Source: Minisyncoccia bacterium
GTDB lineage: Bacteria; Patescibacteriota; Minisyncoccia; Phycocordibacterales; UBA2100
Length of the DNA stretch: 35,788 nt
Direction: 5' to 3'
Assembly: GCA_049306055.1 (NCBI GenBank)
Contig: JBAQPT010000094.1
Location: 1 to 35,788 of the forward strand
The notes beneath the pieces were generated by a model, which searched no databases, was not told where the DNA came from, and saw only the letters and a program-made list of their open reading frames with translations. Position numbers and translations under genes: made by a program. This document shows, piece by piece, positions 2,591 through 26,769 of the stretch. Within the stretch, counting starts at the first letter, position 1. Every line of letters begins with the position of its first letter.

Positions 2591-4498
2591 ATGGTACGAT
2601 TTTGCAATAGTATGTTGCACGAACTCCGCACCTCCGGGAGCTTTTTTCGGTCACTACGAACGACCGAAGGAAAAATAACGCTTCTTTCGCTCTGCAGCGG
2701 TGCGTTCCTCTTAGCTCTTGTCGGCATCGTGCTATTTGAAACACCTGAGCCCGTGCGTGCGGACGATGTCTCGACCTCAGTAACCGTTTTGAATACGCCG
2801 CCAACATGGACCGTGAATGCGCAAGAATTAGTGGCGTCTGCAACATCCACGCCGACAAATTCGGGCGCGAATATTACTTGGATCGCAACAGCGGACGATT
2901 CCAGCGGTGACCGATACTATCTATTGATATGCAAGACCAGTGGTCTGCCGACGGCTAACGCAAACACGGCGCCATCCTGCAACGGCGGCGTTGCAAACCA
3001 ATGGGCAGTTTCTGCCTCAACCACTGTCTCCGTGCAAGCTGCCGCCGCGACAACGACGAAGGAGACGTTCCCCTTTGAAAATGAGAAAAACGACTGGTTT
3101 GCATGGGTCTGCGACGGCAACGCGGCACTTCCGCGCTGTTTCGGCACCTTTACAACGGGCAATGAGTTCGGCGACAACGGCTCACCGTTCGTCATCAATC
3201 ACCCGCCGGTTTTCGCTGCAACCGCGAATGATGGCCCGGAGAATCCGGGGGGAACGGTGACATGGTCTTCGACAAGCTACGACAATGATGTCTTAAGTGG
3301 AGCGAACGATCAGATCAGGCTCTTTGTATGTCGAGCGGCCGGTTTTTCGACCTCCACCGGATGCACTGGTGCGGGTGGCGGCTGGGCAACTTCCACTCTG
3401 ACTGCAACGAATGCTGCGACTACGACCGACATCGTCGTTCCGACACGTGACGGTTTATACGACGCGTTTGTCTATCTTATGGACGAACATAATCACGCCG
3501 CGACATCGTCGTTCCAAGCATCAAATTCCTCGTTTACCGTCAATAACGTCGCGCCGGCACTCAGTTCCGCGACGATCAGCCTCGAAGATGTGGACAATGT
3601 CGGAAACCTTACGCTAGCAACCCCCGAAGGCCAGACGTCAGGTTTCGAGGTGCGATTTACTGCTACCGACAACAATAGTTGTCAGAACATTGTGTCGGGG
3701 AATGAACTTACCTCAGCCATAGCCAATATTTACCGCACCGGTGTCGGATCCACCTCATGCCAAGTTTCCGGCGACTATAATTCAAACAATTGTTACGCGA
3801 ATGCGTCTCCGCTCTTTAGTCCGTACATTTCATGTACACAGGATGGCGGTTCATGCAGCGGCTCGTCAGACTCAACGGCGACATGGACTTGTACGTTTTC
3901 TGTCTGGTATAACGCCGATCCGACCGACGCTTCGACACCGTGGACCGCGGAAGGCTGGCAGACAACCGTACAAATCGGCGATGACGATTTCGCCACGTCG
4001 ACCCTCACCGAATCGCTCTCAGGGAACGAAATGACCAGCTTCCTCGCCTTCAATGTCTCGCAGACGACGATCGCGTTTGGAAGCTTGGAACCGGGCCAAT
4101 TTAACGATCCGCTCGCAACGACGACTGACCTTGTCGCAATAGGGAACGTTGGTCTCGACGAAGATCTCCACGGCGACACGATGTGTACGACGACTGAGTG
4201 GACCGGACCGGACACTTGCGATACAAACGGTATTAATCCGGCAAATGACATCCCGGTTAACAACCAGAAAATCGCAACATCATCCGTTGCCTATGCAGCA
4301 ACAGAGGCATTCACGCTTACGGGTTCCTCAACGCCGACAGAATTGACCATCCGCGTCCCGAAGACGACCGCGACCTCGTCACCACAAGAGCGAGACACCT
4401 ACTGGGGTATTAACATCCCAATCGCCATCACAACCGCTGGCAGTTACGAAGGGCAAAACACTATCACGGCGAAGAAGAGCGCGATCGGCTTCTGGTAA
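2591..4498 (+). CDS. Secreted Thr/Ser/Cys-rich beta-rich surface protein (fibre-like protein 1 of 3)
   Basis: This is ORF 2384-4498, whose 5' part overlaps the permease gene. ATG 2591 is used here (alternatives 2552, 2612); it precedes the hydrophobic segment ITLLSLCSGAFLLALVGIVLF. Two N-terminal repeats are visible (TPPTWTV..NITW..YYLLICK and HPPVFAA..TVTW..IRLFVCR). The C-terminal block LAFNVSQTTIAFGSLEPG...AGSYEGQNTITA is shared with CDS 18202 and 22355. Confidence 0.6.
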   Translation: MVRFCNSMLHELRTSGSFFRSLRTTEGKITLLSLCSGAFLLALVGIVLFETPEPVRADDVSTSVTVLNTPPTWTVNAQELVASATSTPTNSGANITWIATADDSSGDRYYLLICKTSGLPTANANTAPSCNGGVANQWAVSASTTVSVQAAAATTTKETFPFENEKNDWFAWVCDGNAALPRCFGTFTTGNEFGDNGSPFVINHPPVFAATANDGPENPGGTVTWSSTSYDNDVLSGANDQIRLFVCRAAGFSTSTGCTGAGGGWATSTLTATNAATTTDIVVPTRDGLYDAFVYLMDEHNHAATSSFQASNSSFTVNNVAPALSSATISLEDVDNVGNLTLATPEGQTSGFEVRFTATDNNSCQNIVSGNELTSAIANIYRTGVGSTSCQVSGDYNSNNCYANASPLFSPYISCTQDGGSCSGSSDSTATWTCTFSVWYNADPTDASTPWTAEGWQTTVQIGDDDFATSTLTESLSGNEMTSFLAFNVSQTTIAFGSLEPGQFNDPLATTTDLVAIGNVGLDEDLHGDTMCTTTEWTGPDTCDTNGINPANDIPVNNQKIATSSVAYAATEAFTLTGSSTPTELTIRVPKTTATSSPQERDTYWGINIPIAITTAGSYEGQNTITAKKSAIGFW

Positions 4499-4587
4499 AA
4501 GCGCGATATATGCGCGGTATGCACAGACATCACCAACGGCCGTCACCAACGGCCGTCCTCGCGCGTGAGCGTGATACAATTTTTCGT

Positions 4588-5556
4588 ATGGCCATTCCTA
4601 CATGGCGGCTTTTTGGCGTTGTCACATTCGCGCTTTTTCTGGTATGCCTCAGCGCAAACAGCGTGCATGCGGGCTTCGGTATCACACCGCCGTATGTTGA
4701 AAATCATCGGCTGACTCGCGGCACGGTATACGAACAAAAAATCACCCTTGTCCGCTCCGACCCGACAGAAGATTTGCAGGCGGAAATCACTATGAACCTG
4801 CCGGAAATCGAGTCGTGGTTTTCCGTCGATCGCGGTAACAAATTCATCCTGCCGAAAGGATCAACGCAAATTCCGATTGTCGTTCGTGTCACGGTGCCCG
4901 ACGATGCGGACTACGAGGCGCACCAAGGCACCATTCGTATTCGTACGTCGGCGCTCGAAGGGAGCGCGCCATCGGGAAGCGGCGTTACGATCGCGCTCGG
5001 CGCGCAAGTCGACGTGAATGTCGAGGTTGTCGATAAGATTTATGATTTCGAAGTACGCAAAATTCGCTCACTCGATCTTGAAGAAGGGCGGCGCAAATGG
5101 GGACTCTTTTTCCCCGGTAAAATCAGCTTTCTCATGACGATTGAAAACACCGGGAACACCGAATACGGGCCGACGAAGGTGCAGTTTGAAATTTACGACC
5201 GTGACATGGAAACACTGCTTGAAACGATCGAAAACACGAACCGCATAGAAAAAATTCCTCCGTTTGCGATCCAAGAAGTACTTGCCGAATTGCCGACGCG
5301 CCTTGTTGCCGGCCAGTACAAGGCAAAATACACGATTTTTAAAGGTGACGAAGTCGCCCAGCAAAATGTTATTGACCTTTCGATCAGCACGATCGGAGCC
5401 ATCCCTGGCTACGAGGGATACGGATTTAACGGACTTTCTCTCGCGGACAAATTGAAAGTTGCGGCAGCGCTCGGCGTTCCTCTCCTTATTCTCGGCGCGC
5501 TTGGCGTAACACTCGTGCGCCGACGACAACGCGCGCATGCCCTCCGATCGTACTAA
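4588..5556 (+). CDS. Membrane-anchored surface protein with two beta-sandwich halves, DUF916/DUF3324-like (anchor paralogue 1 of 4)
   Basis: ATG 4588 gives the signal peptide MAIPTWRLFGVVTFALFLVCLSANSVHA. The first half ends WFSVDRGNKFILPKGSTQIPIVVRVTVPDDADYEAHQG. The second half contains IENTGNTEYGPTKVQFEIYD. The C-terminal TM AAALGVPLLILGALGVTLV is followed by RRRQR. The family call rests on architecture and motif recall only. Confidence 0.55.
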   Translation: MAIPTWRLFGVVTFALFLVCLSANSVHAGFGITPPYVENHRLTRGTVYEQKITLVRSDPTEDLQAEITMNLPEIESWFSVDRGNKFILPKGSTQIPIVVRVTVPDDADYEAHQGTIRIRTSALEGSAPSGSGVTIALGAQVDVNVEVVDKIYDFEVRKIRSLDLEEGRRKWGLFFPGKISFLMTIENTGNTEYGPTKVQFEIYDRDMETLLETIENTNRIEKIPPFAIQEVLAELPTRLVAGQYKAKYTIFKGDEVAQQNVIDLSISTIGAIPGYEGYGFNGLSLADKLKVAAALGVPLLILGALGVTLVRRRQRAHALRSY

Positions 5557-6694
5557 TTTCCAGCTTGCGTACGCGCTCGCGTGCGTCGGCATCACGGCAT
5601 TTCTGTGTACGCTATTCGTCGCGCTCACGAATTCCGCAAGCGCAATCACCGTACAGACGCAGGCAACGATCTCGATTTGCGGCGATGGTATTGTTTCTGC
5701 CGAGGAGGTATGTGATTTAGGGGCAGGGAACAATATTGGTATCTATGCTTCGTCCACGGACGAGCGTGTCTGCGCACCGGGCTGCATGAGTTACGGACCC
5801 TACTGCGGCGATAATGTGTTGCAGGTGCGATTTACCGAGGCATGCGATGACGGAAACAACACCTCGGGAGATTTATGTACGTCGCAATGCCAGACCGAAG
5901 TCGCGACGCCGCCCGGAAATGGCGGGAGTCCTACGGTCGGCGCCACCCCCTCGATTCCCGGCGCGACGCCGGGCGAAATTCCATCGATTACCGAGACGAA
6001 AGTTGTCATTCGCGGCAGGGCGTATCCAGGAAGCAGTGTGAAGGTTTTGCTCGACGGAAAAGCCTTTGGTGATACGCGCGCCGACGCAAATGCGGATTTT
6101 CAATACACAACGACCGAAATAACGCCGGGCATCGCCACGTTCGCGTTTATTGCGATGGATCCGAAGGGTTCCGAATCCATTTTGACGACGGTCGTCTTTG
6201 AAGTTGTGCAGAGTGCGGTCACGACGGTGGCGAACATCCTCATGCCCCCGACTATTTCCGTGAATGCTACACAAATTGATCCGGGCGAACTGCTGACAAT
6301 TTCCGGGTATACCGTGCCGGAAGCAATCGTCAACACCGAAATTAATTCGGGGCGGAGGACAACGCTCTCTTCCGACGCAAGCACTGGCGGCGTCTGGTCG
6401 CTCCAGGTCGACACGAATTCGCTCGATGAAGGACCAAATACGGCGAAATCATCATTCGAACTCACATCGGCAGTACGAAGCGGTTTCGGCAAGTCCGTCA
6501 GTTTTCTTGTGGGGGAGGGCGCACTCGGGACACCGGGGTCGGCCGATATAAATGGTGACGACAAGATCAATCTTACCGACTTCTCAATCTTCCTCCTTTC
6601 GTGGGGTACCGACAATATTGCCAGCGACTTTAACAGTGACGGAAACGTCAACTTGGCGGACTTTAGTATTATGCTCTTTAACTGGACGGGGTGA
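5537..6694 (+). CDS. Secreted protein: Cys-rich repeats (Myxococcus-type CGDG..CDDGN) + Ig-like modules + C-terminal type-I-like dockerin
   Basis: The signal peptide ends LTNSASA. Repeats are CGDGIVSAEEVCDLGAGNN and CGDNVLQVRFTEACDDGNNTSGDLCTSQC. The dockerin at nt ~6545-6691 reads DINGDDKINLTDFSIFLLSW...DFNSDGNVNLADFSIMLFNW. The gene overlaps the upstream gene by 20 nt. Confidence 0.8.
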   Translation: MPSDRTNFQLAYALACVGITAFLCTLFVALTNSASAITVQTQATISICGDGIVSAEEVCDLGAGNNIGIYASSTDERVCAPGCMSYGPYCGDNVLQVRFTEACDDGNNTSGDLCTSQCQTEVATPPGNGGSPTVGATPSIPGATPGEIPSITETKVVIRGRAYPGSSVKVLLDGKAFGDTRADANADFQYTTTEITPGIATFAFIAMDPKGSESILTTVVFEVVQSAVTTVANILMPPTISVNATQIDPGELLTISGYTVPEAIVNTEINSGRRTTLSSDASTGGVWSLQVDTNSLDEGPNTAKSSFELTSAVRSGFGKSVSFLVGEGALGTPGSADINGDDKINLTDFSIFLLSWGTDNIASDFNSDGNVNLADFSIMLFNWTG

Positions 6695-6719
6695 TTGAAA
6701 AACCCGCTATACTGTCACT

Positions 6720-7631
6720 ATGCTTCGAACCATTGGCGCACTACTCTTGCTTTTCCCATTCTCCGTAAGCGCTGCAGCCGTGTATTTTGAGCCTGCAGAA
6801 GGAATATTTGGTCTTGGTGACACCTTTATCGTAAATGTCCGCGTCCTTCCGGACGAATGCGTAAACGCTGCAGAAGTGGAAATACAATTCCCGCCGCATT
6901 TGCGCGCCGTCGATTTTGGAAAAGGGGATTCCATCCTCTCACTATGGGTCGAGGAACCGCTTCTCGAGGAAGGTCGCGTCCGTTTCGCGGGAGGCATCCC
7001 CGGCGGCTACTGCGGCCGCATCCAAGGTGATCCAGCGCTCAGCAATATTCTCGGGAAAATCGTCTTCACCGTGACGGACGTAGGGCCCGGCAGCGCACAA
7101 CTTAATTTTTCTGCGCAAACAGCGCTCTACTTGAACGACGGTCTTGGAACCAAGGTAACGCCCGAAATGCCAGGTGCGTCGTTTACTATTCTTCCGACAC
7201 CGCAGTTGAGCGAGAATCCCTGGATCGCCGCAGTGCAGGCCGACACCATCCCGCCGGATGCGTTTACTATCGACGTCGAATCAACGCGCGGAGTTTTCGG
7301 CGGGCGGTACTTCATCGTGTTCTCGACGCTCGACAAACAAAGCGGCATTGATCACTATGAAATTTTTGAGCGCGGTGCCTGGAAAACCGTGACGTCTCCG
7401 TACGAGCTGAAAAGCCAGTCGCTGCGCGGCGGCATTCAACTGAAGGCGATTGATAAGGCGGGAAATGAGCGACTGGGCACATACGTCGAAGGCTCAGCAC
7501 CGCCGCTTGAGACTCCGTACAGCACGATGCAGCTCCTTCTCGTTGCGCTCGGCGTACTTGTTGTCGTCGGCGCGGCGGGTCTCTACATGCGCCGATTGCA
7601 TCGCGAGACGCCGCCTGCTCCGCCCGCATGA
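6720..7631 (+). CDS. Cohesin-like domain protein with C-terminal TM anchor
   Basis: Signal peptide MLRTIGALLLLFPFSVSAAA. The cohesin-like module reads VYFEPAEGIFGLGDTFIVNVRV...NAAEVEIQFPPHLRAVDFGKGDSILSLWVEEP...GRVRFAGGIPGGY...ILGKIVFTV. The C-terminal TM is LLLVALGVLVVVGAAGLYM. Confidence 0.7.
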   Translation: MLRTIGALLLLFPFSVSAAAVYFEPAEGIFGLGDTFIVNVRVLPDECVNAAEVEIQFPPHLRAVDFGKGDSILSLWVEEPLLEEGRVRFAGGIPGGYCGRIQGDPALSNILGKIVFTVTDVGPGSAQLNFSAQTALYLNDGLGTKVTPEMPGASFTILPTPQLSENPWIAAVQADTIPPDAFTIDVESTRGVFGGRYFIVFSTLDKQSGIDHYEIFERGAWKTVTSPYELKSQSLRGGIQLKAIDKAGNERLGTYVEGSAPPLETPYSTMQLLLVALGVLVVVGAAGLYMRRLHRETPPAPPA

Positions 7632-8626
7632 TCCGTCTCGCGCTTTTACTTCTTCTCTTTCTTCCGCTATCCGTGAACGCCGAAAGCGCGCTCTTTGTCT
7701 CGCCCGAATACGGCGTGTATACGATCGGTGAGGAATTCGATGTTTCGGTACATGCCGACAGTGGTGGCGTGGACATTAACGCTGCAGAAGCGGAAATTAC
7801 CTTCAATCCGACGGGGCTTGAAGTGCTTCGGATCTCGACGGACGGCTCGATTTTAAGTGCATGGCCGACGCCCCCGACGTTTTCAAATCAAAAAGGGACG
7901 ATCCGTTTTTCTGGGTGGGCGAAAGATACTTACAACGGATCTGACGGCCTTCTTGTCACCATTCGATTCAAGGCGCTGCGCGTTATCTCCAGCAACGCCC
8001 ATCTCGCGGCGGGGGCAATTCTTGCAGCAGACGGTCGCGGTTCGAACATCATCACGAGCCTGCAGTCGGGCATGTATTCGATTGAGCCAGAATTTGCGGA
8101 CGCTGAAATTCCACCTGAGGCCGAAGGTGAGAGTGCCGAGTCACTTGACCCGATTGCACTGGCTGAGGCAGATCTCTTAAATGACAACGTTCTCGCGCCG
8201 CCCGAATTTACCGATTACAAAGATGTCGTCGAGGTAGGCGAGCGGATTATCGTGAACGGCAAGACGACGACCGATACTAAAGTCGTATTCTTTTTTTCTA
8301 AGGGGAACGAGAAGGATGATTTCAGCGCGATCACGAGCGATTCAGACGGCTCGTTTACGTTCATTTCAAATCAAGGCGCCGAGGCGGGCGTGTACCGACT
8401 GCGTGCCGCGGTGCAGGACGCAAACGGTCGCGGTTCGGAATTCGCGCGCGTAACGGTAACCGCGCGTTCGACTGGCTTGGCCGCTGCTGCGTCCGTGGGG
8501 AAGGATATGGCTGCAACCATTATTCCGCTCCTCTCTGTCCTCGCTTTCGCCGGTCTCGGCGCGGGATATCTCTATCACCGGCACGCAATCGAGAAACTCA
8601 AGCACGGCCGTCGGTCACATTCGTAA
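7628..8626 (+). CDS. Cohesin-like domain protein with C-terminal TM anchor (paralogue)
   Basis: ATGA overlap with the upstream gene. Signal peptide LLLLFLPLSVNA. The cohesin-like module reads LFVSPEYGVYTIGEEFDVSVHADSGGVDINAAEAEITFNPTGLEVLRISTDGSILSAWPTPP...GTIRFSGWA...LLVTIRFKA. The C-terminal TM is IIPLLSVLAFAGLGAGYLY. Confidence 0.7.
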   Translation: MIRLALLLLLFLPLSVNAESALFVSPEYGVYTIGEEFDVSVHADSGGVDINAAEAEITFNPTGLEVLRISTDGSILSAWPTPPTFSNQKGTIRFSGWAKDTYNGSDGLLVTIRFKALRVISSNAHLAAGAILAADGRGSNIITSLQSGMYSIEPEFADAEIPPEAEGESAESLDPIALAEADLLNDNVLAPPEFTDYKDVVEVGERIIVNGKTTTDTKVVFFFSKGNEKDDFSAITSDSDGSFTFISNQGAEAGVYRLRAAVQDANGRGSEFARVTVTARSTGLAAAASVGKDMAATIIPLLSVLAFAGLGAGYLYHRHAIEKLKHGRRSHS

Positions 8627-9346
8627 TTGCGACAGAAGGATGGAAAGGTCAGCAAGCCCGAGAGTACCGCTTTTGTCGAGGTCGTACCGCGGGTTATACG
8701 GCTGCATAAGGTGTATTGCGAGGATCGACATGTCAGCGAGAGAAATGCTGCCGTCTTCGTTAAAATCAGCGTTCGATTTCTCCGCTTGTCCTCCGATCTC
8801 GATCGACTGTTCACCGGAAGCGAGCGGCGCACGATCGATAATCAAGAGCGTGAGCTCGCGCGCTTCGTTCGGCACCGCTCCGCCAGTCCCGTCGTGCGCA
8901 AAGAGTTCGGTATTCGAAAAGCGGATCGTCGCGCTGCCCGATTTTTTCGCACGCACCGTGATGGTAAGCACCGTGCCGACGCCGATAAAGCCACCTCTCT
9001 CAACGGTGCCGCCGCTGAAATGAATTTCACCCGTGTCTTCGCTGATTGACGTCTCTTCGGTCCAGAGGCTCAGAAACGATTTTGCCTTGCTGATGCCAAC
9101 GATTTCTAGATATTCCGGCGGTACGGTCAATGTTGCGCCGAGTGCGTTGATTGGCGTATCAGCGTTAATCTTAATATCGAGCGAAGTTGTCGCACCCGTT
9201 GCAAGGACATCGCTCGCCTCGGGGGACAGAAAAACAAGCGCGTCCTTGCCGGTGAGCGTAAGTGCGCTCGCGACTACCGCGAACACGGCAATACTGTGCC
9301 CGACGATGAGCTTGCGGCGGTGCGTTTTCATAAATCGCTTCATCAT
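8615..9346 (-). CDS. N-terminally anchored cohesin-like + C-terminal dockerin protein (adaptor-type)
   Basis: ATG at 9346 gives MMKRFMKTHRRKLIVGHSIAVFAVVASALTL. The cohesin-like module is LVFLSPEASDVLATGATTSLDIKINADTPINALGATLTVPPEYLEIVGISKAKSFLSLWTEE...GEIHFSGG. The dockerin is DFNEDGSISLADMSILAIHL...DLDKSGTLGLADLSILLSQL. The 3' end overlaps the convergent gene 7628-8626 by 12 nt. Confidence 0.7.
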   Translation of the reverse strand: MMKRFMKTHRRKLIVGHSIAVFAVVASALTLTGKDALVFLSPEASDVLATGATTSLDIKINADTPINALGATLTVPPEYLEIVGISKAKSFLSLWTEETSISEDTGEIHFSGGTVERGGFIGVGTVLTITVRAKKSGSATIRFSNTELFAHDGTGGAVPNEARELTLLIIDRAPLASGEQSIEIGGQAEKSNADFNEDGSISLADMSILAIHLMQPYNPRYDLDKSGTLGLADLSILLSQLRM

Positions 9347-9419
9347 GGGATTAGTGTAGCGTGCTCCGTCGAGCGGTTCGGAAAATTGAATGAAGCATAG
9401 TGCATAACCGAGAGCCGGG

Positions 9420-10154
9420 TTACTCAATCGAGGGTGCTGAAATGAAAAGGGAAGGTTCGGCAATGTCGATCACCGTATTCGATCGATATGTCTCGTTTTC
9501 AAATACTAATTCACGCGCTCGGTCATGTTCAAGGCGTACGCGGACGTGTCCGCCGGGGCCGATGCGGCGCAGAAGCGACTCAAGTGTTCCACCAACGGCA
9601 GGATCCTCGTCAGAAACCGTGAATGAATACCAGTCTCCCTCGCTGCCAGTGTAGCGAAGATATTTTAGTCCGTCGGAAAAAATGCGGAGATTGTCGAGCA
9701 CCGGCCCAGTCGGTGCGATGTCTTTGTATTCAGCAGGAATGGTGTCGTTCGTAAAGCGTTTCCAGGGGCCGTGGGGAATAACGCTCTTCAATAATTCGCT
9801 TTTCGTCTCGACGAGCACGTAGGTCTCATCGCCGAGTGTTGTGGTATGGAGAAAGAATGCATGTGATTCATCGTTAAAGCGCACCGTCGTTGTCGCGAGG
9901 GTCTCATACCGACCGTTTGGCTCGTCAATACGGTATATGCCCTCGATGGTAAGCGTTCGATCGGAAAGCTCCGCCTCGGTGTGCACTGATTGCGTGTATA
10001 CGCGGATTTGGGCGCTTTTCTCGATAATTTCGTACGTATGTACATCGAGTTCGGTGTTTTCCGCTTTGAGGAAGAGAAGGTACCCTCCAAGACAGAGTCC
10101 GATGAGAAGAAGCACTGCGCCGGAAAGGAAGATATTGTGGGGGATCGAGCCCAT
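9420..10154 (-). CDS. N-terminally membrane-anchored hypothetical protein
   Basis: ATG at 10154 gives MGSIPHNIFLSGAVLLLIGLCLGGYLLFL. The rest is a soluble ~215-aa domain with no motif I recognise. It lies upstream of, and on the same strand as, the cohesin-dockerin gene. Confidence 0.6.
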   Translation of the reverse strand: MGSIPHNIFLSGAVLLLIGLCLGGYLLFLKAENTELDVHTYEIIEKSAQIRVYTQSVHTEAELSDRTLTIEGIYRIDEPNGRYETLATTTVRFNDESHAFFLHTTTLGDETYVLVETKSELLKSVIPHGPWKRFTNDTIPAEYKDIAPTGPVLDNLRIFSDGLKYLRYTGSEGDWYSFTVSDEDPAVGGTLESLLRRIGPGGHVRVRLEHDRARELVFENETYRSNTVIDIAEPSLFISAPSIE

Positions 10155-10309
10155 TACCGCTAGTATACGGGCTTTTTCGGCACTTTTAGGCTGGAAGCAC
10201 CATTCATGATGAATTTCACGTACAAAAACATGCAAAGCAAAACCTGTCGAGTTGTCCACAGCGTGTCAACCAACTGTATTGCGGCAATTATATAATAAAC
10301 CTGTCAAAT

Positions 10310-10353: not shown

Positions 10354-10361
10354 ATTTATAT

Positions 10362-10757
10362 ATGGGAAGCCAAAAAAGGGAAACCGATCAATTTATCTCA
10401 CTCCGGGAAGCTGCCGAGATCTCTGGCTACACCGCTGATTATGTCGGCCAGCTAATACGCCGGGGAAAGTTGCCCGGCAAGCAGGTTTTCTCGAATGTGG
10501 CATGGGTGACGACCCGCGAAGCACTCAACGAGTATCTCGATGAAAAAAGCGATAACAATGAGATGCCAGTGGAAACGATAACGCTCAGAGACCGGCTTCT
10601 TTCAATCGAATCATTCACGCTCGTTATTCAAGCATTTCAATGGGGGGTTATTGCGTGTCTCTTCAGTATCATCCTTTTCTTTGGGTACATCCTTTCCGTG
10701 AGTGTCGATTACTCGATCAGCGAGAGGCGTATGCAGAACATTCCGTATGTTGAATAA
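10362..10757 (+). CDS. Membrane-tethered helix-turn-helix protein (excisionase/MerR-like HTH + C-terminal TM)
   Basis: The N-terminus ISLREAAEISGYTADYVGQLIRRGKLPGKQV matches the excisionase-type HTH pattern. The TM is FTLVIQAFQWGVIACLFSIILFFGYILSV. The 3' end overlaps the giant gene start by 11 nt. Confidence 0.65.
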   Translation: MGSQKRETDQFISLREAAEISGYTADYVGQLIRRGKLPGKQVFSNVAWVTTREALNEYLDEKSDNNEMPVETITLRDRLLSIESFTLVIQAFQWGVIACLFSIILFFGYILSVSVDYSISERRMQNIPYVE

Positions 10758-16398: not shown

Positions 16399-16413
16399 TA
16401 ATCTATACGACGT

Positions 16414-17334: not shown

Positions 17335-17738
17335 ACGAAATCATTGATTACTGCATCGAACACGGCGTCAAAGCAATTGTCTTTTGGGTGGTGGGGGCGC
17401 TCGTCGTTTTCGCGCTTTTCGGTGTTTTCAATCTCAACGTCAATGGCGATTTTCCATCAATAGATAGTGACAAATGGCAGGCCGTTTTTCTTGAAAACGG
17501 GCAGGTGTATTTCGGCAGGCTCCGCGAGTATGATCAAAATTTCGTCGAGCTCACTGATGTCTACTACTTGAAAACTGCGGCGGATCTCGATACGGGCGCA
17601 AATCTCAATCTCATCAAGCTCGGCGGGGAAGTGCATGGGCCGGAAGATGAGATGTTCATTGCGAAAGACAGCATTCTCTATTTCGAAAATATGAAAGAAA
17701 CGTCGCGTGTCGTCGAATCCATCGAGCGAGCGCAATAA
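17331..17738 (+). CDS. Small N-terminally anchored hypothetical protein
   Basis: ATGA overlap with the upstream gene. The TM is AIVFWVVGALVVFALFGVF. The soluble part reads WQAVFLENGQVYFGRLREYDQNFVELTDVYYLK... Confidence 0.65.
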   Translation: MNEIIDYCIEHGVKAIVFWVVGALVVFALFGVFNLNVNGDFPSIDSDKWQAVFLENGQVYFGRLREYDQNFVELTDVYYLKTAADLDTGANLNLIKLGGEVHGPEDEMFIAKDSILYFENMKETSRVVESIERAQ

Positions 17739-17741
17739 TCT

Positions 17742-18200
17742 ATGCGAAACGATCCCTTAACAATCCGACTCAAAAAAGATTCCGAATGGCAGGAGCCGTC
17801 GCCGCCGATTCGACCGTCGCATTTGCCACCGCCTTCCACGCCGCGCAGAGCGCGCCGCTCGTGGCAAGGGCCGATTCTCGCTGGCATCGCGCTTCTTGCG
17901 CTCCTGTGCGTCGGCTATTTAATCTATCGCGTTTTCTTTCTTGATGCAGAGGAACGTGAGGCGCGCGAGTCGCAAGAGCTGGTCGATACCGTCGGCATGC
18001 TCATGCTGCTTCCCGCGGATGAACAACCAACAATTGCAACCGTGACGGATCTCGAGAGCTTGCGTGATCAGGAGTTTTTCCGCTACGCCGAGCTCGGCGA
18101 CATCGTGCTCATGTATCCGAAAGCCCAGCGCGCAATTCTCTATAATCCGGACGAAAACAAAATCATCGAAGTAGCGCCGATTACGATCGACGTTCAATGA
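17742..18200 (+). CDS. Small N-terminally anchored hypothetical protein (Pro/Arg-rich cytoplasmic head)
   Basis: The TM is ILAGIALLALLCVGYLIYRVFF. The soluble part reads LVDTVGMLMLLPADEQPTIATVTDLESLRDQEFFRYAELGDIVLMYP. It starts 3 nt after the upstream stop. Confidence 0.65.
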   Translation: MRNDPLTIRLKKDSEWQEPSPPIRPSHLPPPSTPRRARRSWQGPILAGIALLALLCVGYLIYRVFFLDAEEREARESQELVDTVGMLMLLPADEQPTIATVTDLESLRDQEFFRYAELGDIVLMYPKAQRAILYNPDENKIIEVAPITIDVQ

Positions 18201-18201
18201 T

Positions 18202-19515
18202 ATGGTGCTTCGCCGCGCAGCCGCTTCAACACTCGTCGCCGCGCTCCTTGCGGCGCCACTTGCGTTTGCTGACGAAAGCGCGAGTCAGAATTTTCGCGTA
18301 CAAAACGCGGCATTTAATGATTTTGGCGGCGTCGCGACCTCGGCAAGTTTTCAGGCAGTGGGAAGCGGCGGGGAGCTCGCTAACACATCGAGCTCGACCA
18401 ATTTCACCCTCGACGCCGGGCATCTATATTTTGATTCGTTTACACCGCGCTCACACAATTGGCGCTGGTACGATGACGAGGAAAACGAAACGCCATCGAG
18501 CGCGTTCGCCGCAGAAAACACCGCGCCGAATACGATTGCTACCGCGAACGTGATTAAACTTCGTGTTTCTGTTGCTGAAGTCGCGGGCCTCAGTGCGAGT
18601 ACAACGAAATTCCGCCTTCAGTTTGCAACGTCATCTGGTTTTACTAGCGGCATGTTTGCCGATGAAATTGGTGATTGCGGCGGCGGGTCGGAATGGTGTT
18701 ACGCGGATGGTGCTGGCGTCGACAACGTACTCATCACGACGGCAACGCTCTCCGATGCTGATTCGTGCGTCGCGAGTGTGGGAGATGGATGCGGGACACA
18801 CAACGAATCAGGAACCACGACTTCCGCGTATACGCACACCGCATCAACAACAGCGGAATACGAATTCACTATTGCAGAGTCAGGAGCAACCGCAAACACG
18901 ACGTATTTTTTCCGACTCTATGATGTCGCGGCGAACATCGGCGTTCCACCAAACAGTGGTGAGACGTACCCAAGCGTCTCAACGGGCGGCGGCACGCTCT
19001 CATTTGCAGTCGCAGGCATTGCCTCGTCTACCGTGATTGAAGGCATAACGACTGATGTGGATACAACAGCGGACGAGGTTCCATTTGGAACGCTCGCGCT
19101 CGGAGCTACCACCACCGCTGCGCATCGCCTCACGCTCTCGACGAATGCGACAAATGGCTACCGCGTGTTCGTCTATGAACGTCAGCAGTTTCTCCAGCAA
19201 TCGAATGCCGCAATCGAGCCTGTCTCGGGGACGAATGCGTCGCCCGTGAGCTGGGAGAGTGGTTGCCCAGGCTCCGTTGCCGGATGCTACGGGTATCACA
19301 CAAGCGACGACGTCCTCGGAAGCGGGAATGCCGCGCGCTTCGCACCGGACAACACGTACGCCGGATTCAGCGGAGGTCCGGACGAAGTCGCCTATCACAG
19401 CGGGGCAGCGGAAAATCACGAAACCGACATCGTCTACCGTGTTGTCGCACGTGATGAACAAGAAGCGGGTGCGTATGAAAGCGCAATTGTGTTTATCGCA
19501 ACACCTGTCTTTTAA
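18202..19515 (+). CDS. Secreted Thr/Ser-rich beta-rich surface protein (fibre-like protein 2 of 3; WxL-like C-terminus)
   Basis: The signal peptide ends AAPLAFA. The N-terminal duplicated motif is SQNFRVQNAAFNDFGG / SASFQAVGSGGE / STNFTLDAG. The shared block is LSFAVAGI...VPFGTLALG...LTLSTNATNGYRVFV. The terminal strand is AGAYESAIVFIATPVF. Confidence 0.65.
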   Translation: MVLRRAAASTLVAALLAAPLAFADESASQNFRVQNAAFNDFGGVATSASFQAVGSGGELANTSSSTNFTLDAGHLYFDSFTPRSHNWRWYDDEENETPSSAFAAENTAPNTIATANVIKLRVSVAEVAGLSASTTKFRLQFATSSGFTSGMFADEIGDCGGGSEWCYADGAGVDNVLITTATLSDADSCVASVGDGCGTHNESGTTTSAYTHTASTTAEYEFTIAESGATANTTYFFRLYDVAANIGVPPNSGETYPSVSTGGGTLSFAVAGIASSTVIEGITTDVDTTADEVPFGTLALGATTTAAHRLTLSTNATNGYRVFVYERQQFLQQSNAAIEPVSGTNASPVSWESGCPGSVAGCYGYHTSDDVLGSGNAARFAPDNTYAGFSGGPDEVAYHSGAAENHETDIVYRVVARDEQEAGAYESAIVFIATPVF

Positions 19516-19523
19516 GCTCTGGT

Positions 19524-20825
19524 ATGCTTACTACAATGATTCGCATCGGTGCACTTCTTTCGCTTCTTGTTTTTGTGATGCCGTTCTTCGTGCATGCGGC
19601 GGATATGGAATTGACGCCGTTTGTGATTGATGAAAAAGCGAAGGCGCGCGACATCATCAAAAAAGAACTCACCATCCGCAACACGAGCAATCGCAAACTC
19701 AATTTGTATCCGGGCGTTAACGACGTCAATCCCGAAGACGGCAAGATCGTGTTCGTTTCCGCGGTCTCGGGCGAAGACCGCGAAGCATCGCTCGCAAATT
19801 GGATCGAACTCTCGCGCGGGGTTGTTGAACTCTCGCCCGGCGAGGAAAAAACGATGCCGTTTACGATTCGCGTGAATATGACCGCGCTTCCTGGCGTGTA
19901 CCACGCGGCGATTTCTTTTTCAGAAGGTTCGACGCGTACGTCGGCGGAACAAAATGGCGAGCTCGTTACCTTGATGGTGAATGTGGAAATTCTTGCTGAC
20001 ATCAAAGAGTCGCTGCAGCTGAATAAATTTGCGACCGACAACTTTTTCCTCTCCGGCGACGATGTTCTTTTCGACTATCAATTGGAGAATACCGGTAATC
20101 AAGCGCTGCAACCGAAAGGGGAAATCAGGATTTACGATCGGCGCGGCGAAGAAATCGCGGCGGTGGAAGTAAATGGCGACGGAAAATTAGTCGCGCCGGA
20201 AGAAGTCGCGCAGCTCGCATCGGTGTGGAGCGCGGTCCAAGGGTTTGGAAAATATAAAGCGATGCTGAACGTGGAATATGGCGAAAGCCAGCTGGCGTCG
20301 GTCCAAGACACCGTCTTTTTCTGGGTTGTGCCATGGAAGCAACTCGCTCTTATGCTTACCGTAACTCTTATTGCCGTCATTATTTTCGCGCTCTACTTCC
20401 ATCGTTGGCTTGAAGAGCGGCACATGCAAAAATTTGCGCTCGCTGCGGGAATTCCGATGCCACAACCACCTCCGCCGCAGGATCCGTCGGTTCATCGCCC
20501 GGGATTCTTCGGTCGTCTCGCGGCAAAGATAGCCCCACGAAAGTCTCCGCTCATGACTATGGCACAGACAGCGCCGCCAGTTGCGCACGTAGCACCTGCA
20601 CCTCCTCCGGCGGCGCCTGCTCCTGCCGCCCCAGTTGTACCGCACGCAACTGAACTCACGCCCGCACCAGAGCGGCCGACGCTCAAAGAAGCATTAGAGC
20701 GCTCGCCGACGCCGCACTTGGACTCGTACACCGGCAACGTCATCGATCTCAAACAGCGACACGAAGCAATTCGGAAGTCTGAAGTGCCGCAATCAAGCGT
20801 GATCAACCTCAAAAAGCGCTCATGA
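19524..20825 (+). CDS. DUF916/DUF3324-like two-domain membrane anchor (paralogue 2) with ~140-aa Pro/Ala-rich cytoplasmic tail
   Basis: The signal peptide ends FFVHA. First half: LANWIELSRGVVELSPGEEKTMPFTIRVNMTALPGVYHAAISF. Second half: LENTGNQALQPKGEIRIYD...FGKYKAML. The TM is LALMLTVTLIAVIIFALYF. The tail contains PMPQPPPPQDP...APAPPPAAPAPAAPVVP. Confidence 0.6.
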   Translation: MLTTMIRIGALLSLLVFVMPFFVHAADMELTPFVIDEKAKARDIIKKELTIRNTSNRKLNLYPGVNDVNPEDGKIVFVSAVSGEDREASLANWIELSRGVVELSPGEEKTMPFTIRVNMTALPGVYHAAISFSEGSTRTSAEQNGELVTLMVNVEILADIKESLQLNKFATDNFFLSGDDVLFDYQLENTGNQALQPKGEIRIYDRRGEEIAAVEVNGDGKLVAPEEVAQLASVWSAVQGFGKYKAMLNVEYGESQLASVQDTVFFWVVPWKQLALMLTVTLIAVIIFALYFHRWLEERHMQKFALAAGIPMPQPPPPQDPSVHRPGFFGRLAAKIAPRKSPLMTMAQTAPPVAHVAPAPPPAAPAPAAPVVPHATELTPAPERPTLKEALERSPTPHLDSYTGNVIDLKQRHEAIRKSEVPQSSVINLKKRS

Positions 20826-22066
20826 TCGTACGGGGGGTTATTGGATGCGCGGTCGTACTCGGTTTTTTTGCGGGGAGCGTCGAGGCGCAGTCGCTCGCCG
20901 TTACTGTTACGCCACCCTTGTTCCAACTGACGATCGGTCCCGGCGAAACGTGGGCGAGTTCGCTTAAAGTAGTCAATACGAATGCGTACGACGTTACGTA
21001 TTTTTCAGAAATTGTTGATTTTGCAGCGGAGGGCGAAGCAGGGAACGGACGATTTATTCCGATCGTTACTACTGGTGGTGCGCACACCCTTGGCAGCTGG
21101 ATCGAATTGCCGCAAGAATCGGTGGTGATCGGCGCGGGGGCGAGTGGGGAAATTCCCTTTACCGTGCGTATTCCTGCGGACGCATCACCAGGCGGACATT
21201 ATGCGGCGGTTCTTGTGGGAACGCGGCCGCCTGGGGATCAATTGACGGGCTCCGGCGTTTCTATTTCGAGCTTCGTTTCGTCGCTTCTCTTTGTCCGTAT
21301 CGAAGGTGACGTGCACGAGAGCGGACGTATCCGCGAATTTCGCTCCGACAGCACATGGTACGAGAATGCGCTCGCACAATTCGTACTCCGCTTTGAAAAT
21401 ACCGGCAACACGCACTTGCAGCCGCAAGGGGACATAACGATCTACAATATGTGGGGGAAGGAGCGTGGCAAGGTGGCCATCAATCAAAAAACCAATTTCG
21501 GTAACGTGCTTCCACAAAGCATTCGTCGGTTCGAGTTTTCATGGGACGGCGAGGAAGAAGCGTTTGACATCGGTCGCTACAGCGCCGTCGTGACGCTCGC
21601 ATATGGGGAAGATGGAAAACAGAATGTGACAGCAACGAATTATTTTTGGGTTGTACCCGTCGTACCCGTAGCAACGACGCTCGGCGGGCTTTTCGCACTC
21701 CTCATACTTATGACGTGGCTTATTCGTCGGTATATTCGCCGCGCACTGTCGCTTGAACGTGCGCGAATGGGCATTTCCGAGTCCAGCCCACCGACATCGC
21801 CATCAATCAGTACTTTCGTACAGCCGATTCGCGAAGGCGTTGTTGATCTCCGACGACTCTCCGGCGCCGTTCCCGCAACCCCAGCATCCGAGACTGCCGC
21901 AGCGCCGCTCACGACGGGTCAGTTTGTCGGAAGGTACCGTCTTTTCTTCGTCTTTCTTATTGTTGTCGTGATCGGCTGCATTGGCGCGTGGTATTACTTC
22001 GAAAAAGCGCTCGCGCCGGAGCGGGCGTTCGAAATTTCCGCGATTGACGTCGGGGAAGAGGAATAG
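20822..22066 (+). CDS. DUF916/DUF3324-like two-domain membrane anchor (paralogue 3) with a second C-terminal TM
   Basis: ATGA overlap with the upstream gene. The signal peptide ends FFAGSVEA. First half: LGSWIELPQESVVIGAGASGEIPFTVRIPADASPGGHYAAVL. Second half: FENTGNTHLQPQGDITIYN...IGRYSAVVTL. TM1 is LGGLFALLILMTWLI and TM2 is LFFVFLIVVVIGCIGAWYYF. Confidence 0.6.
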   Translation: MIVRGVIGCAVVLGFFAGSVEAQSLAVTVTPPLFQLTIGPGETWASSLKVVNTNAYDVTYFSEIVDFAAEGEAGNGRFIPIVTTGGAHTLGSWIELPQESVVIGAGASGEIPFTVRIPADASPGGHYAAVLVGTRPPGDQLTGSGVSISSFVSSLLFVRIEGDVHESGRIREFRSDSTWYENALAQFVLRFENTGNTHLQPQGDITIYNMWGKERGKVAINQKTNFGNVLPQSIRRFEFSWDGEEEAFDIGRYSAVVTLAYGEDGKQNVTATNYFWVVPVVPVATTLGGLFALLILMTWLIRRYIRRALSLERARMGISESSPPTSPSISTFVQPIREGVVDLRRLSGAVPATPASETAAAPLTTGQFVGRYRLFFVFLIVVVIGCIGAWYYFEKALAPERAFEISAIDVGEEE

Positions 22067-22354
22067 AGGCGCCGCCGTCCGTTTCGTGTACATGATGTAC
22101 GTATGAAGTCATGCGATGTCCAATGCGTGTCACGGACGTCGCGCCCAATATATGCCTCAACAGAGCGATATAAGAGTTATCCACAATCTCACGTTATTTC
22201 AAGACACTTGTCCAATATTATCGGATACAATGCGCCGTGTGGGGAAACCCACAATCGCGACATCAGCCCTTTGACGGAGAAAGAGCGTCAAGCGGTCTCT
22301 GGTTTGTGCGAGGAAACACAATACTAGCTAACCGATTTGTTACTTACCGTTCGT

Positions 22355-23539
22355 ATGAACATTTTTAATATCCGCACTGGAGCTGGGAAGATCAATCTGA
22401 CGATTCTCGCGCTTCTCTCCGTCCTCATCTGGGCAACAGGCGCACCGGCATTCCTTTCATCGGCAAATGCAGCCGCGCTTACGAACGTAAGTGATACTCT
22501 CACCGATTCCGATTTGAACGTAGCTTCAGCTCATCGATTGCTGTTCACAACAGTGACAGCGCTTGATGCTGACGACACGATCGAAATTTCTCTCGACCCA
22601 GGCAGCGATGGCGACGACGATGAATTCACCATCAACAACCTCGGCGCTACCGATTTTCATTCAACAACAACCGTTCGCGTCGTCGGTAACACGGTCGGCG
22701 CATGTACCGGTTCCGCAAGCGAATTGTACGTTTCCACCTCGACCGCTCCGGATGACAAAGTAACGCTCACGGTCTGTACTGGCGACAGCGTTACGCCGGG
22801 GATTATCGGCTTCACCATGGGCGCGACGTCGACTCCGAAAATTACGAACCCAAACAGCGTCGGCTCAGAAATCATTCTCATCCAGACACGCAACGAAGGT
22901 GGACAAGCATCAGCCGACATCATTGATAGTGCAGAAACCCGCGTCGCGATCATCGATGACGTGACGGTTACCGCGTCTGTCGATTCAACCTTTACCTTTA
23001 CGATTACCGGTGTCGCAAACGGGCAAGCAGTGAACGGCAGTGCTACGACAACGTCGACAACAACAACCGCGACACTCATTCCATTCGAAACACTCTCGCC
23101 AAATAGCTCGAAAGTCCTGGCGCAGGATCTTGCCGTAACGACTAACGCCGCAAACGGCTTTATCGTGACCGTTGTGCAAGATCAGAACCTCACCTCGTCA
23201 ACGGGCGCTGACATCGACCTCTTCACAAACGGCGCAACAACTTCTACGCCGATCGCATGGACAACACCGACGAATACCCTGAACCAAGAATGGACGTACG
23301 GTCACATTGGTATCACGAGTGAAGACGCAGACTTGAACAGCAACGAATTCGGCACTGACCTCTGGGCAGGTAACTTCCATCTTCCGCGTCAAGTCTTCAG
23401 CCACACCGGGCCATCGGATGGCTCTACGCCGAACCAAGGCTCGACACGCGTCGGCTACCAGATCGAGATCGACTCACTCCAAGAAGCGGCCAGTGACTAC
23501 ACCAACACGCTTACTTACGTCGCGACGCCGACATTCTAA
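22355..23539 (+). CDS. Secreted Thr/Ser-rich beta-rich surface protein (fibre-like protein 3 of 3; WxL-like C-terminus)
   Basis: ATG 22355 lies inside the TTG-started ORF 22337. Signal peptide INLTILALLSVLIWATGAPAFLSSANA. The N-domain NVSDTLTDSDLNVASAHRLLFTT...ITNPNSVGSEIILIQT is also seen in CDS 25105. The shared block is FTFTITGV...IPFETLSP...LAVTTNAANGFIVTV. The terminal strand is ASDYTNTLTYVATPTF. Confidence 0.7.
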   Translation: MNIFNIRTGAGKINLTILALLSVLIWATGAPAFLSSANAAALTNVSDTLTDSDLNVASAHRLLFTTVTALDADDTIEISLDPGSDGDDDEFTINNLGATDFHSTTTVRVVGNTVGACTGSASELYVSTSTAPDDKVTLTVCTGDSVTPGIIGFTMGATSTPKITNPNSVGSEIILIQTRNEGGQASADIIDSAETRVAIIDDVTVTASVDSTFTFTITGVANGQAVNGSATTTSTTTTATLIPFETLSPNSSKVLAQDLAVTTNAANGFIVTVVQDQNLTSSTGADIDLFTNGATTSTPIAWTTPTNTLNQEWTYGHIGITSEDADLNSNEFGTDLWAGNFHLPRQVFSHTGPSDGSTPNQGSTRVGYQIEIDSLQEAASDYTNTLTYVATPTF

Positions 23540-23549
23540 TGAATACTGC

Positions 23550-23577
23550 GCCATCGTTAGAGAATAAAAACGATGGC
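23550..23577 (+). terminator. 9-bp hairpin downstream of CDS 22355 (weak terminator candidate, no U-tract)
   Basis: GCCATCGTT (23550-23558) pairs with AACGATGGC (23569-23577) around a 10-nt A-rich loop. It begins 11 nt after the TAA stop. The missing T-run lowers confidence. Confidence 0.3.
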
Positions 23578-23627
23578 AGTGCAAGGAATACCTATGATAG
23601 ACTCGGATGTGTCATTCTGAACTCTGT

Positions 23628-24698
23628 ATGACCAACCGGATCACGGTATCCCTCGTACTTCTTCTCGCACCGTTTTTCGCGGTGCTTGCTCCGGCTTCGT
23701 ATGCTGTCGCGCAGGGCGTTGAAGGTCTTCAAATCAAGCCAGCAGTCATTGAAGATAGAGCCGATCCGGGAGAGACATACAACTTTACCGTAAACGTCAC
23801 GAACGTTTCCGAAACTGAGAGAACGTTCTACCTTACTGCACAAGACATTCGTGGGCTCGACGATCGCGGTAATCCGCTCTTCGCAGAGCCAGGTGAAGGT
23901 ACGCCCTACGAATTAAGCGGATGGGTGTCGTTCCCTGGGGCGTCAATTACGCTCAAGGGCGGCGAATCTCGCAATGTTCCGATCACGGTGCGCGTCCCAC
24001 GTGAGGCCGCTCCCGGATCGCACTTCGGTGGCGTCTTTTTTGACATCGAGCCGCAGCAGGCGGAATCAACGGGCGCTGCGATCGCGCTGCGTGTTGGCAG
24101 CATCATCGCACTCCGTATTTCAGGCGATACGACGGAAGATGCGCGGTTGCGCGAATTCTCCACAGAAAAGCGCATCTACAGCACTCCGAATGTCGGCTTT
24201 AATTCTCGCGTCGAAAACCTGGGAAATGTTCTCTTGCGTCCACACGGACTTATTGAAATTACCGACATGCGCGGAACGAACGTGGCGACGGTGCGCGTGA
24301 ACGACACCGGCGCGCCGATTTTCCCCGAAACCGATCGTGTCTTCACGACTTCGTGGAATCATGACGGCTTTGCATTCGGTCGCTACCAGGCGATTGTAAG
24401 TCTTGTCTACGGCGAAGACGAACGAAAGACGATTACCGGAACGACTGCGTTCTGGGTTCTCCCCTTGAAGCCGATTTTGACTGTACTTGGGACATTTCTC
24501 GGTATCGCACTCGTTCTCTACTTGTACATCCGTATGTACATCCGACGTAAGCTTGGCGAAATGGGCGGCAATCGATCGAACGCTGATTACTACGAGCGTC
24601 GCTATCAACGATCGGCGTCGCGCATGATGTTGGTCACTGCTGCAATTTTTGTCATCGCCGTTGTCTTCCTTGCACTTCTGTTCGTGATGTTTGCGTAG
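23628..24698 (+). CDS. DUF916/DUF3324-like two-domain membrane anchor (paralogue 4) with two C-terminal TMs
   Basis: ATG 23628 gives the signal peptide MTNRITVSLVLLLAPFFAVLAPASYAVA. First half: LSGWVSFPGASITLKGGESRNVPITVRVPREAAPGSHFGGVFF. Second half: VENLGNVLLRPHGLIEITD...FGRYQAIVSL. The TMs are ILTVLGTFLGIALVLYLYI and MMLVTAAIFVIAVVFLALLFVMF. Confidence 0.6.
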   Translation: MTNRITVSLVLLLAPFFAVLAPASYAVAQGVEGLQIKPAVIEDRADPGETYNFTVNVTNVSETERTFYLTAQDIRGLDDRGNPLFAEPGEGTPYELSGWVSFPGASITLKGGESRNVPITVRVPREAAPGSHFGGVFFDIEPQQAESTGAAIALRVGSIIALRISGDTTEDARLREFSTEKRIYSTPNVGFNSRVENLGNVLLRPHGLIEITDMRGTNVATVRVNDTGAPIFPETDRVFTTSWNHDGFAFGRYQAIVSLVYGEDERKTITGTTAFWVLPLKPILTVLGTFLGIALVLYLYIRMYIRRKLGEMGGNRSNADYYERRYQRSASRMMLVTAAIFVIAVVFLALLFVMFA

Positions 24699-24704
24699 GC
24701 GGGT

Positions 24705-25082: not shown

Positions 25083-25104
25083 AATACTGTGCGATACTGT
25101 GCGT

Positions 25105-26760: not shown

Positions 26761-26769
26761 AATGACGCT

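Follow-up and report, generated by a model that had tools for sequence, protein, structure and literature searches.

Contig JBAQPT010000094.1 of a metagenome-assembled genome (MAG) labelled Minisyncoccia bacterium (35,788 bp, locus tags WA021_03630 to WA021_03710; the whole contig is called the window here) encodes three secreted beta-proteins, F1, F2 and F3. Their genes are followed by genes for membrane-bound proteins with two beta domains, referred to here as anchors (A1 after F1, A2a and A2b after F2, A3 after F3). This locus probably represents a distant version, in an ultra-small Paceibacterial organism, of the Pam-type pilus known from the candidate phyla radiation (CPR), i.e. a chaperone-assisted, usher-less fibre that would be built by donor-strand exchange. 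Minisyncoccia are a class within the phylum Minisyncoccota, which is the formal name of Patescibacteria or CPR; relatives of the organism carry the labels Paceibacteria or Parcubacteria.

CPR bacteria presumably live attached to host cells, by means of organelles about which very little is known. Pam pili came to light only in 2026, in a single cultured species of Saccharimonadia, Ca. Mycosynbacter amalyticus, whose PamA and PamB filaments were solved by cryo-electron microscopy (June 2026 preprint, bioRxiv 10.64898/2026.03.03.709456). According to this preprint, a Pam pilin has two domains joined by a strand, which inserts into the open C-terminal domain of the adjacent subunit; conservation in PamA and PamB is highest in the linker and the C-terminal domain. 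PamC and PamD are FimC/PapD-like chaperones anchored in the membrane by a C-terminal transmembrane (TM) helix, and no usher is present. PamT, composed of a C-terminal domain only, is the tip pilin, and PamR is an RbmA-like terminator or anchor with an N-terminal strand and a TM helix. A gene for a tail fibre-like protein is conserved near pam operons, which occur mainly in Saccharimonadia and Microgenomatia (bioRxiv 10.64898/2026.03.03.709456).

Pilin-like proteins F2 and F3

All seven open reading frames (ORFs) that an initial sequence-only reading of this DNA had assigned to the fibre proteins and anchors were confirmed (Table 1). NCBI gene calls are concordant for F3 (394 aa) and A3 (356 aa) and place the start of F1 seven codons further downstream, which yields a protein of 628 aa. 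As originally described, F1, F2 and F3 are rich in Thr, Ser, Ala and Gly (Thr 11-17%, Lys at most 1.3%, Arg 1.8-3.2%) and each begins with a hydrophobic signal-like segment.

Sequence comparison identifies F2 and F3 as homologous two-domain proteins. BLASTP aligns them at 6e-10 and hhalign gives a full-length probability of 98.8%, rising to 99.8% (E 2.5e-29) for the C-terminal domains. The sequence-only reading had proposed a C-terminus common to all three fibre proteins. This holds for F2 and F3; the weak alignment of F1 with them is collinear, running from an FG(S/T)L.PG patch to the AG.Y terminal strand, and is insignificant.

The NCBIfam model NF058581 (CPR_Pam_pilin_C, "Pam pilus system pilin subunit") aligns from position 3 to its end at 148 with residues 290-437 of F2 (E 4e-7, 30.2 bits). 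The same model is matched by 18 of 23 F2 orthologues (best 1.1e-10) and by nine of 50 members of the F3 family (best 1.9e-4); NF058579, the PamT model, is matched by four of the 23 F2 orthologues. Judged from these profile matches, homology of the F2 and F3 C-terminal domains to the Pam pilin model is likely, short of membership in the curated family. Because the F2 family matches a Pam pilin model, a pilus built by donor-strand exchange with chaperones tethered to the membrane is a closer known counterpart than a WxL surface complex, and the first description of the locus as an uncharacterised apparatus is outdated.

Altogether 1158 homologues of F3 were found. In an AlphaFold 2 (AF2) model of the whole F3 chain (pLDDT, the predicted local distance difference test score, 87.5), a first set of strands occupies residues 43-199, a lone strand residues 213-219 and the C-terminal domain residues 253-392. 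F3 is thus modelled as a two-domain beta protein with domains joined by a single strand. Conservation within the family is 0.51 in the N-terminal domain, 0.75 in the linker (peak 0.85), 0.72 in the C-terminal domain and 0.89 in the last strand. Linker and C-terminal domain are therefore the best conserved regions, as they are reported to be in PamA and PamB.

Whole-chain AF2 models of F3 and A3 were compared with the PDB by Foldseek. The full F3 model produced generic tandem immunoglobulin (Ig) matches, namely integrin alpha legs, MSCRAMM adhesins, a cohesin dyad, TasA, BslA, CfaE and an archaeal S-layer protein (7ptu, 2.4e-4), with no WxL or Pam chain in the top 50. None of the three fibre proteins has a Pfam family match at E <= 1 or contains a W-x-L tripeptide, and a PDB sequence search with F2 and A3 returned no meaningful match.

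In all three fibre families the last residue is an invariant aromatic one: W635 in F1 (4493-4495), F437 in F2 (19510-19512) and F394 in F3 (23534-23536). It is preceded by an AG.Y or D-Y strand, which recalls the conserved C-terminal strand of chaperone-usher pilins.

The anchor family and the pairing of genes

By sequence, the four anchors are homologous to one another. BLASTP values among A2a, A2b and A3 range from 1e-23 to 1e-51 (A2b against A3, 2e-51). A1 matches A2b at 1.5e-4 in BLASTP; with a hidden Markov model (HMM) of the A3 family from which all window paralogues had been left out, it gives E 1.6e-7. A2a and A2b match the A3-family HMM at 5.7e-52 and 1.6e-76, respectively. The motifs that the sequence-only reading had considered common to all four anchors do align across them (W..., P.V.VP..A.PG, ENxGN...P and G(R/K/Q)Y). 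Each anchor has an N-terminal hydrophobic signal-like segment and, also as described, one (A1, A2a) or two (A2b, A3) C-terminal TM helices. For A1 an alternative start is possible at 4510.

PF06030 (WxLIP_PGBD, formerly DUF916) is matched by 44 of 46 members of the anchor family, with a best E of 6e-9. A3 scores 28.5 bits, over the gathering score of 27.3, and A2a reaches E 1.1e-4. On the strength of this family assignment, the anchors are bona fide DUF916/WxLIP relatives. No member of the family matches DUF3324 models at E <= 0.01; Foldseek nonetheless aligns A3 with WxLIP over approximately 260 columns, that is, over both domains.

The AF2 model of A3 (pLDDT 86) shows two beta-sandwich domains and then a helical TM hairpin. 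Its top Foldseek match is Enterococcus faecium WxLIP bound to a long WxL protein (9i25_C, E 6e-13), and free WxLIP (9i1y) is matched as well; no publication was found for these two PDB entries. Next come chaperones of chaperone-usher pili, CfaA (4ncd) at 3e-11 followed by CsuC, Caf1M, DraB and FimC down to 1e-7. RbmA is also among the matches (2e-9).

Residues 145-151 form the sole low-confidence stretch in the ectodomain of the A3 model. They lie between the last two strands of domain 1, and the strand that follows this loop has alternating hydrophobic residues (AIALRVGSIIALRI). In the model, loop and strand appear to take the position of the F1-G1 hairpin in chaperone-usher chaperones, and they resemble the hairpin by which WxLIP would insert a strand. 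For the latter, a disordered hairpin of DUF916 is predicted to become a strand that completes the WxL beta-sandwich (PMC10599100), which is donor-strand complementation in all but name. The donor-strand docking suggested by the sequence-only reading agrees with this model of strand insertion and with the Pam mechanism (bioRxiv 10.64898/2026.03.03.709456).

For gene-order counts, the anchor alignment was scanned against one genome per GTDB species, and ORFs of the resulting 80 loci were searched with family HMMs. Labels of these loci include Paceibacteria, Parcubacteria, Adler-, Kaiser-, Harrison-, Sung- and Nomurabacteria, and protein identity is 37-60%. Records among them titled "uncultured Candidatus Saccharibacteria" stem from bulk TPA assemblies, and these titles were given no taxonomic weight. 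Of 65 loci in which the upstream sequence reaches far enough, 64 have an F3-like gene directly 5' of the A3-like gene. The longer order F2-anchor-anchor-F3-anchor is found in 24 of the 50 loci whose upstream sequence suffices for it. Genes with the C-terminal module of F1 are adjacent or next-but-one to an anchor-family gene in six of six informative independent loci, and A1 orthologues directly follow F1 orthologues in the four loci L081-L084. Pairing of fibre and anchor genes, which had been noticed in the window, is thus kept in relatives and is far beyond chance.

Conservation of order extends to a block comprising an ATP-binding cassette (ABC) gene, MacB, F1, A1, a gene for a dockerin protein, one for a protein of ~305 aa, cohesin, two reverse genes, a helix-turn-helix gene and the giant fibre gene. 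L081 and L013 share contig JALHPE010000001.1, where their ranges overlap by ~230 bp; the whole 35 kb is therefore syntenic in this contig. In L088-L091, two genes with the F1 module stand ahead of one anchor gene, after which a dockerin gene and a cohesin gene follow.

Conserved pairing bears on the possibility that the fibre proteins are structural proteins of an S-layer or envelope, and that the two-Ig membrane proteins are unrelated scaffolds, co-located since surface genes cluster in this lineage. The window is packed with secreted surface proteins, and the F3 model touches 7ptu, TasA and BslA, all of which would suit such an explanation. We consider it very improbable: F3-A3 adjacency is strict despite the low protein identity among loci, adjacency persists across unrelated cargo types in all six loci with the F1 module, and the family matches are specific, both to the C-terminal domain of Pam pilins and to the folds of chaperones.

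The F1 module and the proposed assembly

No model in Pfam or NCBIfam covers F1 or its C-terminal module (the last 166 residues), and NF058581 is not matched by F1. A profile search with this module in 1.84 billion representatives retrieved 449 clusters. Of the 150 matches listed, almost all have the module at the C-terminal end or close to it, and the proteins among these matches span from fragments of less than 100 aa to 2,188 aa. Their N-terminal parts contain DUF2341, beta-propeller, RCC1, fn3, Gly_rich_2, Ig or discoidin-like domains. Cargo of the module also includes proteins of more than 5000 aa, encoded upstream of the ABC genes in L081 and L083.

Homology of F1 to F2 and F3 was tried and rejected. 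BLASTP, profile-sequence and profile-profile comparison, trimmed C-terminal-domain profiles and HMMER --max gave nothing significant. Across full-length, trimmed and deepened profiles (the deepened one with Neff, the effective sequence number, of 4.6, from 129 representatives), hhalign probability was 1-13% and P 0.002-0.045. Since no method gave a significant match, F1 is not called a pilin homologue here. Client-plus-anchor logic holds for F1 too, because genes with its module adjoin, or lie near, anchor-family genes in all six loci. The window thus contains three cassettes of the same logic with two kinds of first partner; to speak of one triplicated cassette, as was done at first, overstates the case, given that the C-terminal module of F1 differs.

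By analogy, and not as a demonstration, F1 recalls the two-domain tip adhesins of chaperone-usher pili, being a multi-domain protein with its own C-terminal module, and also the "long" WxL proteins. The likeliest role for F1 is that of an adhesin, at the tip or accessory, which its own chaperone-like partner A1 holds or passes on.

WxL/WxLIP clusters (DUF916-DUF3324-TM; CscA/DufA) are known from Enterococcus, Listeria and Lactobacillaceae (PMC10599100; PDB 9i25, 9i1y). Their anchors, too, start with a signal peptide and have a TM helix at the C-terminus after two Ig-like domains, and the first anchor domain of the window proteins falls into PF06030 and finds its best structural match there. 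In both systems the anchor gene stands beside genes for secreted beta-proteins with a conserved C-terminal part, and the proposed contact is an anchor strand that would complete the beta-sandwich of its partner. Unlike in these clusters, the fibre partners have neither a WxL domain nor W-x-L motifs, the second anchor domain is undetectable as DUF3324, and an LPXTG protein is missing: the motif is absent from the 20 locus proteins examined, as the sequence-only reading had it. Moreover, the host belongs to the CPR and not to Firmicutes, and F2 and F3 have the appearance of pilins that polymerise. Lacking the WxL domain by which such clusters are defined, the locus is not one of them. The WxL/DUF916 analogy drawn at the outset consequently stands for the anchors, on account of PF06030 and the WxLIP structures; it is not supported for the fibre proteins or, by sequence, for the second anchor domain.

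The main alternative to a pilus is that the proteins work as WxL and WxLIP do, without polymerisation. Each anchor would then bind, 1:1 and via an inserted strand, the beta-protein encoded by its neighbour, and the product would be a monomeric surface adhesin instead of a filament. Clear PF06030 membership would be expected in this case, and so would WxLIP bound to WxL as the best structural match of A3. Fibre and anchor genes pair almost one to one, with an anchor dedicated to F1, and the F1 module sits C-terminally on very diverse cargo like the WxL domain on "long" WxL proteins. This explanation still seems unlikely to us. Besides the missing WxL domain and W-x-L motif and a DUF3324 domain that goes undetected, it has to accommodate the match of the F2 and F3 families to a Pam pilin C-terminal-domain model, an inter-domain strand that is highly conserved in both and would be superfluous for a monomeric client, and an organism that is no thick-walled Firmicute.

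Chaperone-usher pili (Fim, Pap, CFA/I, Csu, Caf1) resemble the locus in the two-Ig-domain chaperone fold (Foldseek E 3e-11 to 1e-7) and in a client with a conserved C-terminal strand bearing an aromatic residue, whose Ig-like domain we infer to be incomplete. Donor-strand complementation and then exchange would likewise be common to both. The chaperones of the window differ in being membrane-anchored and not soluble, and no usher-like family occurs among window proteins. The pilins are two-domain proteins whose linker, and not an N-terminal extension, would provide the donor strand, and similarity to chaperone-usher proteins is absent at the level of sequence. CPR bacteria have no outer membrane (bioRxiv 10.64898/2026.03.03.709456).

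With the Pam system, the locus shares a CPR host, Sec-exported two-domain pilin-like proteins (F2 and F3) in which the same parts are best conserved, and C-terminal domains that are likely homologues of the NF058581 model. Neighbouring genes encode TM proteins with two beta domains similar to chaperone-usher chaperones, to which PamC and PamD are likened in the preprint. There are several pilin and chaperone paralogues per operon, no usher, and a giant tail-fibre-like gene nearby. The differences are that the organism belongs to the class Minisyncoccia/Paceibacteria, that its chaperone-like proteins are recognisable as DUF916/WxLIP and some have two TM helices or long tails, that there is an extra cassette with an unannotated C-terminal module (F1), and that cohesin/dockerin genes, together with a protein combining a pilin N-terminal domain with a dockerin, are integrated in the locus.

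We propose that F2 and F3 are Sec-exported pilins in which a conserved strand links an N-terminal beta-sandwich to a C-terminal domain with an incomplete Ig-like fold, and that A2a, A2b and A3 act as membrane-tethered DUF916/WxLIP-family proteins with the fold of chaperone-usher chaperones. At the outer face of the cytoplasmic membrane, the anchor's own strand would cap the groove in the C-terminal domain of a new pilin. The linker strand of the next pilin would then displace the anchor strand, so that a linear filament might grow from its base. One of A2a, A2b and A3 is possibly a terminator; since RbmA is among the Foldseek matches of A3, one of the four anchors could fill the role of PamR. 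F1 and A1 would likewise pair a client with a chaperone, although the C-terminal module of this client is another one, found on many different adhesin-like cargo proteins. Through dockerin proteins and membrane cohesin-like proteins, further components are probably attached to the cell surface, and the fibre as a whole may serve attachment to host cells or particles.

Several points weigh against a Pam-type pilus. All NF058581 scores in the F2 and F3 families are under the curated cut-off of 55 bits (30 bits for F2), and F3 itself has no match to this model. No Pam structure was among the Foldseek matches of F3 or in the PDB copies searched. The anchors match none of the Pam-related NCBIfam models, and an NCBIfam scan of the other window proteins gave no further match to a Pam model, hence no separate PamT-like tip or PamR-like terminator; ATP-synthase genes are absent from the window as well. 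There are four chaperone-like genes per three clients, a ratio that would suit stable 1:1 anchoring in place of transient chaperoning as well. Sequence comparison does not demonstrably relate F1 to the F2/F3 pilins.

A wider proposition is that DUF916/WxLIP proteins of Firmicutes, membrane-anchored Pam chaperones of CPR and chaperones of chaperone-usher pili may belong to a single ancient superfamily of assembly proteins that donate strands. Its Paceibacterial branch would have diversified into four or more conserved paralogues, each serving the client encoded beside it, and the F1 module would direct very diverse adhesin cargo to this machinery. The surface tether, in Saccharimonadia the part of PamR, would come from membrane cohesins and from pilin-like proteins with a dockerin. 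Taken jointly, these statements are tentative and we hold them with more doubt than confidence.

The Pam preprint does not mention WxL or DUF916 (bioRxiv 10.64898/2026.03.03.709456). Four features appear to be undescribed: the link of DUF916/WxLIP to chaperone-like proteins of a Pam-type locus, the architecture of the Paceibacterial locus, the F1-type module and the integration of cohesins and dockerins. If the locus indeed encodes a Pam-type pilus, this pilus type would reach Paceibacteria (Minisyncoccia), in a locus conserved over tens of kilobases. Pam chaperones would be tied to DUF916/WxLIP, so far discussed for surface complexes of Firmicutes, and this tie would suggest a common mechanism of strand donation across monoderm and diderm bacteria. 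A rule for annotation of thousands of "hypothetical" CPR surface proteins would also follow, namely a conserved C-terminal module beside a DUF916-like membrane protein, and both the unannotated C-terminal module and the cohesin-dockerin link would be flagged.

Further genes of the window

Features of the locus are listed in Table 1.

Table 1. Genes of the fibre locus and its surroundings, with positions in the window
Feature	Position	Strand	Description
ABC ATPase	25-1338	+	Long C-terminal extension; Pfam ABC_tran
MacB/FtsX-type permease	1342-2550	+	Pfam MacB_PCD, FtsX; with the ABC ATPase gene directly upstream of F1
F1	2591-4498	+	Secreted Cys-rich multi-domain protein, 635 aa; distinct C-terminal module at aa 470-635 (nt 3998-4495)
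A1	4588-5556	+	Signal peptide, two beta domains, one TM helix; most divergent anchor/chaperone-like member
Dockerin protein after A1	5537-6694	+	Secreted; Cys-rich repeat (DUF4215), Big_6, dockerin
Cohesin-like protein	6720-7631	+	Signal peptide; C-terminal TM helix 272-290
Cohesin-like protein	7628-8626	+	Signal peptide; C-terminal TM helix 294-312
Cohesin-like and dockerin protein	8615-9463	-	Homologous to 6720-7631 product (8e-11); Dockerin_1 E 7.8e-4
Giant fibre protein	10702-16398	+	Secreted, Gly/Thr/Ala-rich, tail-fibre-like, 1898 aa
F2	18202-19515	+	Secreted two-domain pilin-like protein, 437 aa; C-terminal domain (aa ~290-437) Pam-pilin-like
A2a	19524-20825	+	Signal peptide, two beta-sandwich domains, one TM helix (274-292), Pro-rich cytoplasmic tail
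A2b	20822-22066	+	Signal peptide, two beta domains, two TM helices (277-295, 374-392)
F3	22355-23539	+	Secreted two-domain pilin-like protein, 394 aa; N-terminal beta-sandwich 43-199, linker strand ~200-222, Ig-like C-terminal domain ~241-394
A3	23628-24698	+	356 aa; two beta-sandwich domains (34-139, 155-277), two-helix TM hairpin
Downstream dockerin protein	25003-26760	+	F3-like N-terminal domain, Big_6 Ig domain, C-terminal dockerin (Dockerin_1 29.1 bits); no pilin C-terminal domain

The order ABC-MacB-F1-A1 is kept in L081-L084, and ABC and MacB genes are absent beside more distant genes with the F1 module. The dockerin gene after A1 keeps its position in L081-L084 and in L088-L091. The C-terminal half of its product is homologous to the downstream dockerin protein (2e-39).

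The two cohesin-like proteins encoded on the forward strand are homologous to each other (3e-9), and orthologues of the second carry PF00963 (Cohesin). In these two and in the reverse-strand protein, the cohesin-like domain is N-terminal. Three cohesin-like proteins together with dockerin proteins suggest a membrane-anchored cohesin-dockerin network in a CPR bacterium, outside any cellulosome context.

The giant fibre protein contains long internal repeats and a weak match (5.5e-5) to Peptidase_G2, the cleavage domain of intramolecular chaperones in phage tail spikes. Its orthologues, encoded in the same position, contain PF21722 (Gly_rich_2). Between its gene and F2 (16414-18200) lie three small genes, coding for an acidic secreted protein of 306 aa and for single-TM proteins of 135 and 152 aa; none of the three proteins has a significant family match.

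The downstream dockerin gene probably starts at an ATG near 25105. The Dockerin_1 score of its product compares with a gathering score of 22.9. Orthologues of this protein match the N-terminal domain of F3 (BLASTP down to 8.5e-12, HMM 42-72 bits), and its family is the next family match downstream of A3 in 49 of 60 loci. A role as donor-strand terminator is no more than speculation: the FTFTIxG-like linker motif is absent from the window copy, and something similar is found in only two of ten orthologues examined.

A scan of 16000-27500 for promoters and terminators gave no signal above shuffled expectation, and the window contains no tRNAs and no relevant tandem repeats. On the reverse strand, the gene at 31376-32557 codes for a protein with an HGTP anticodon-binding domain only, like a HisRS paralogue or HisZ. 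It adjoins genes for signal peptidase I and peptidyl-tRNA hydrolase, a housekeeping context outside the locus.

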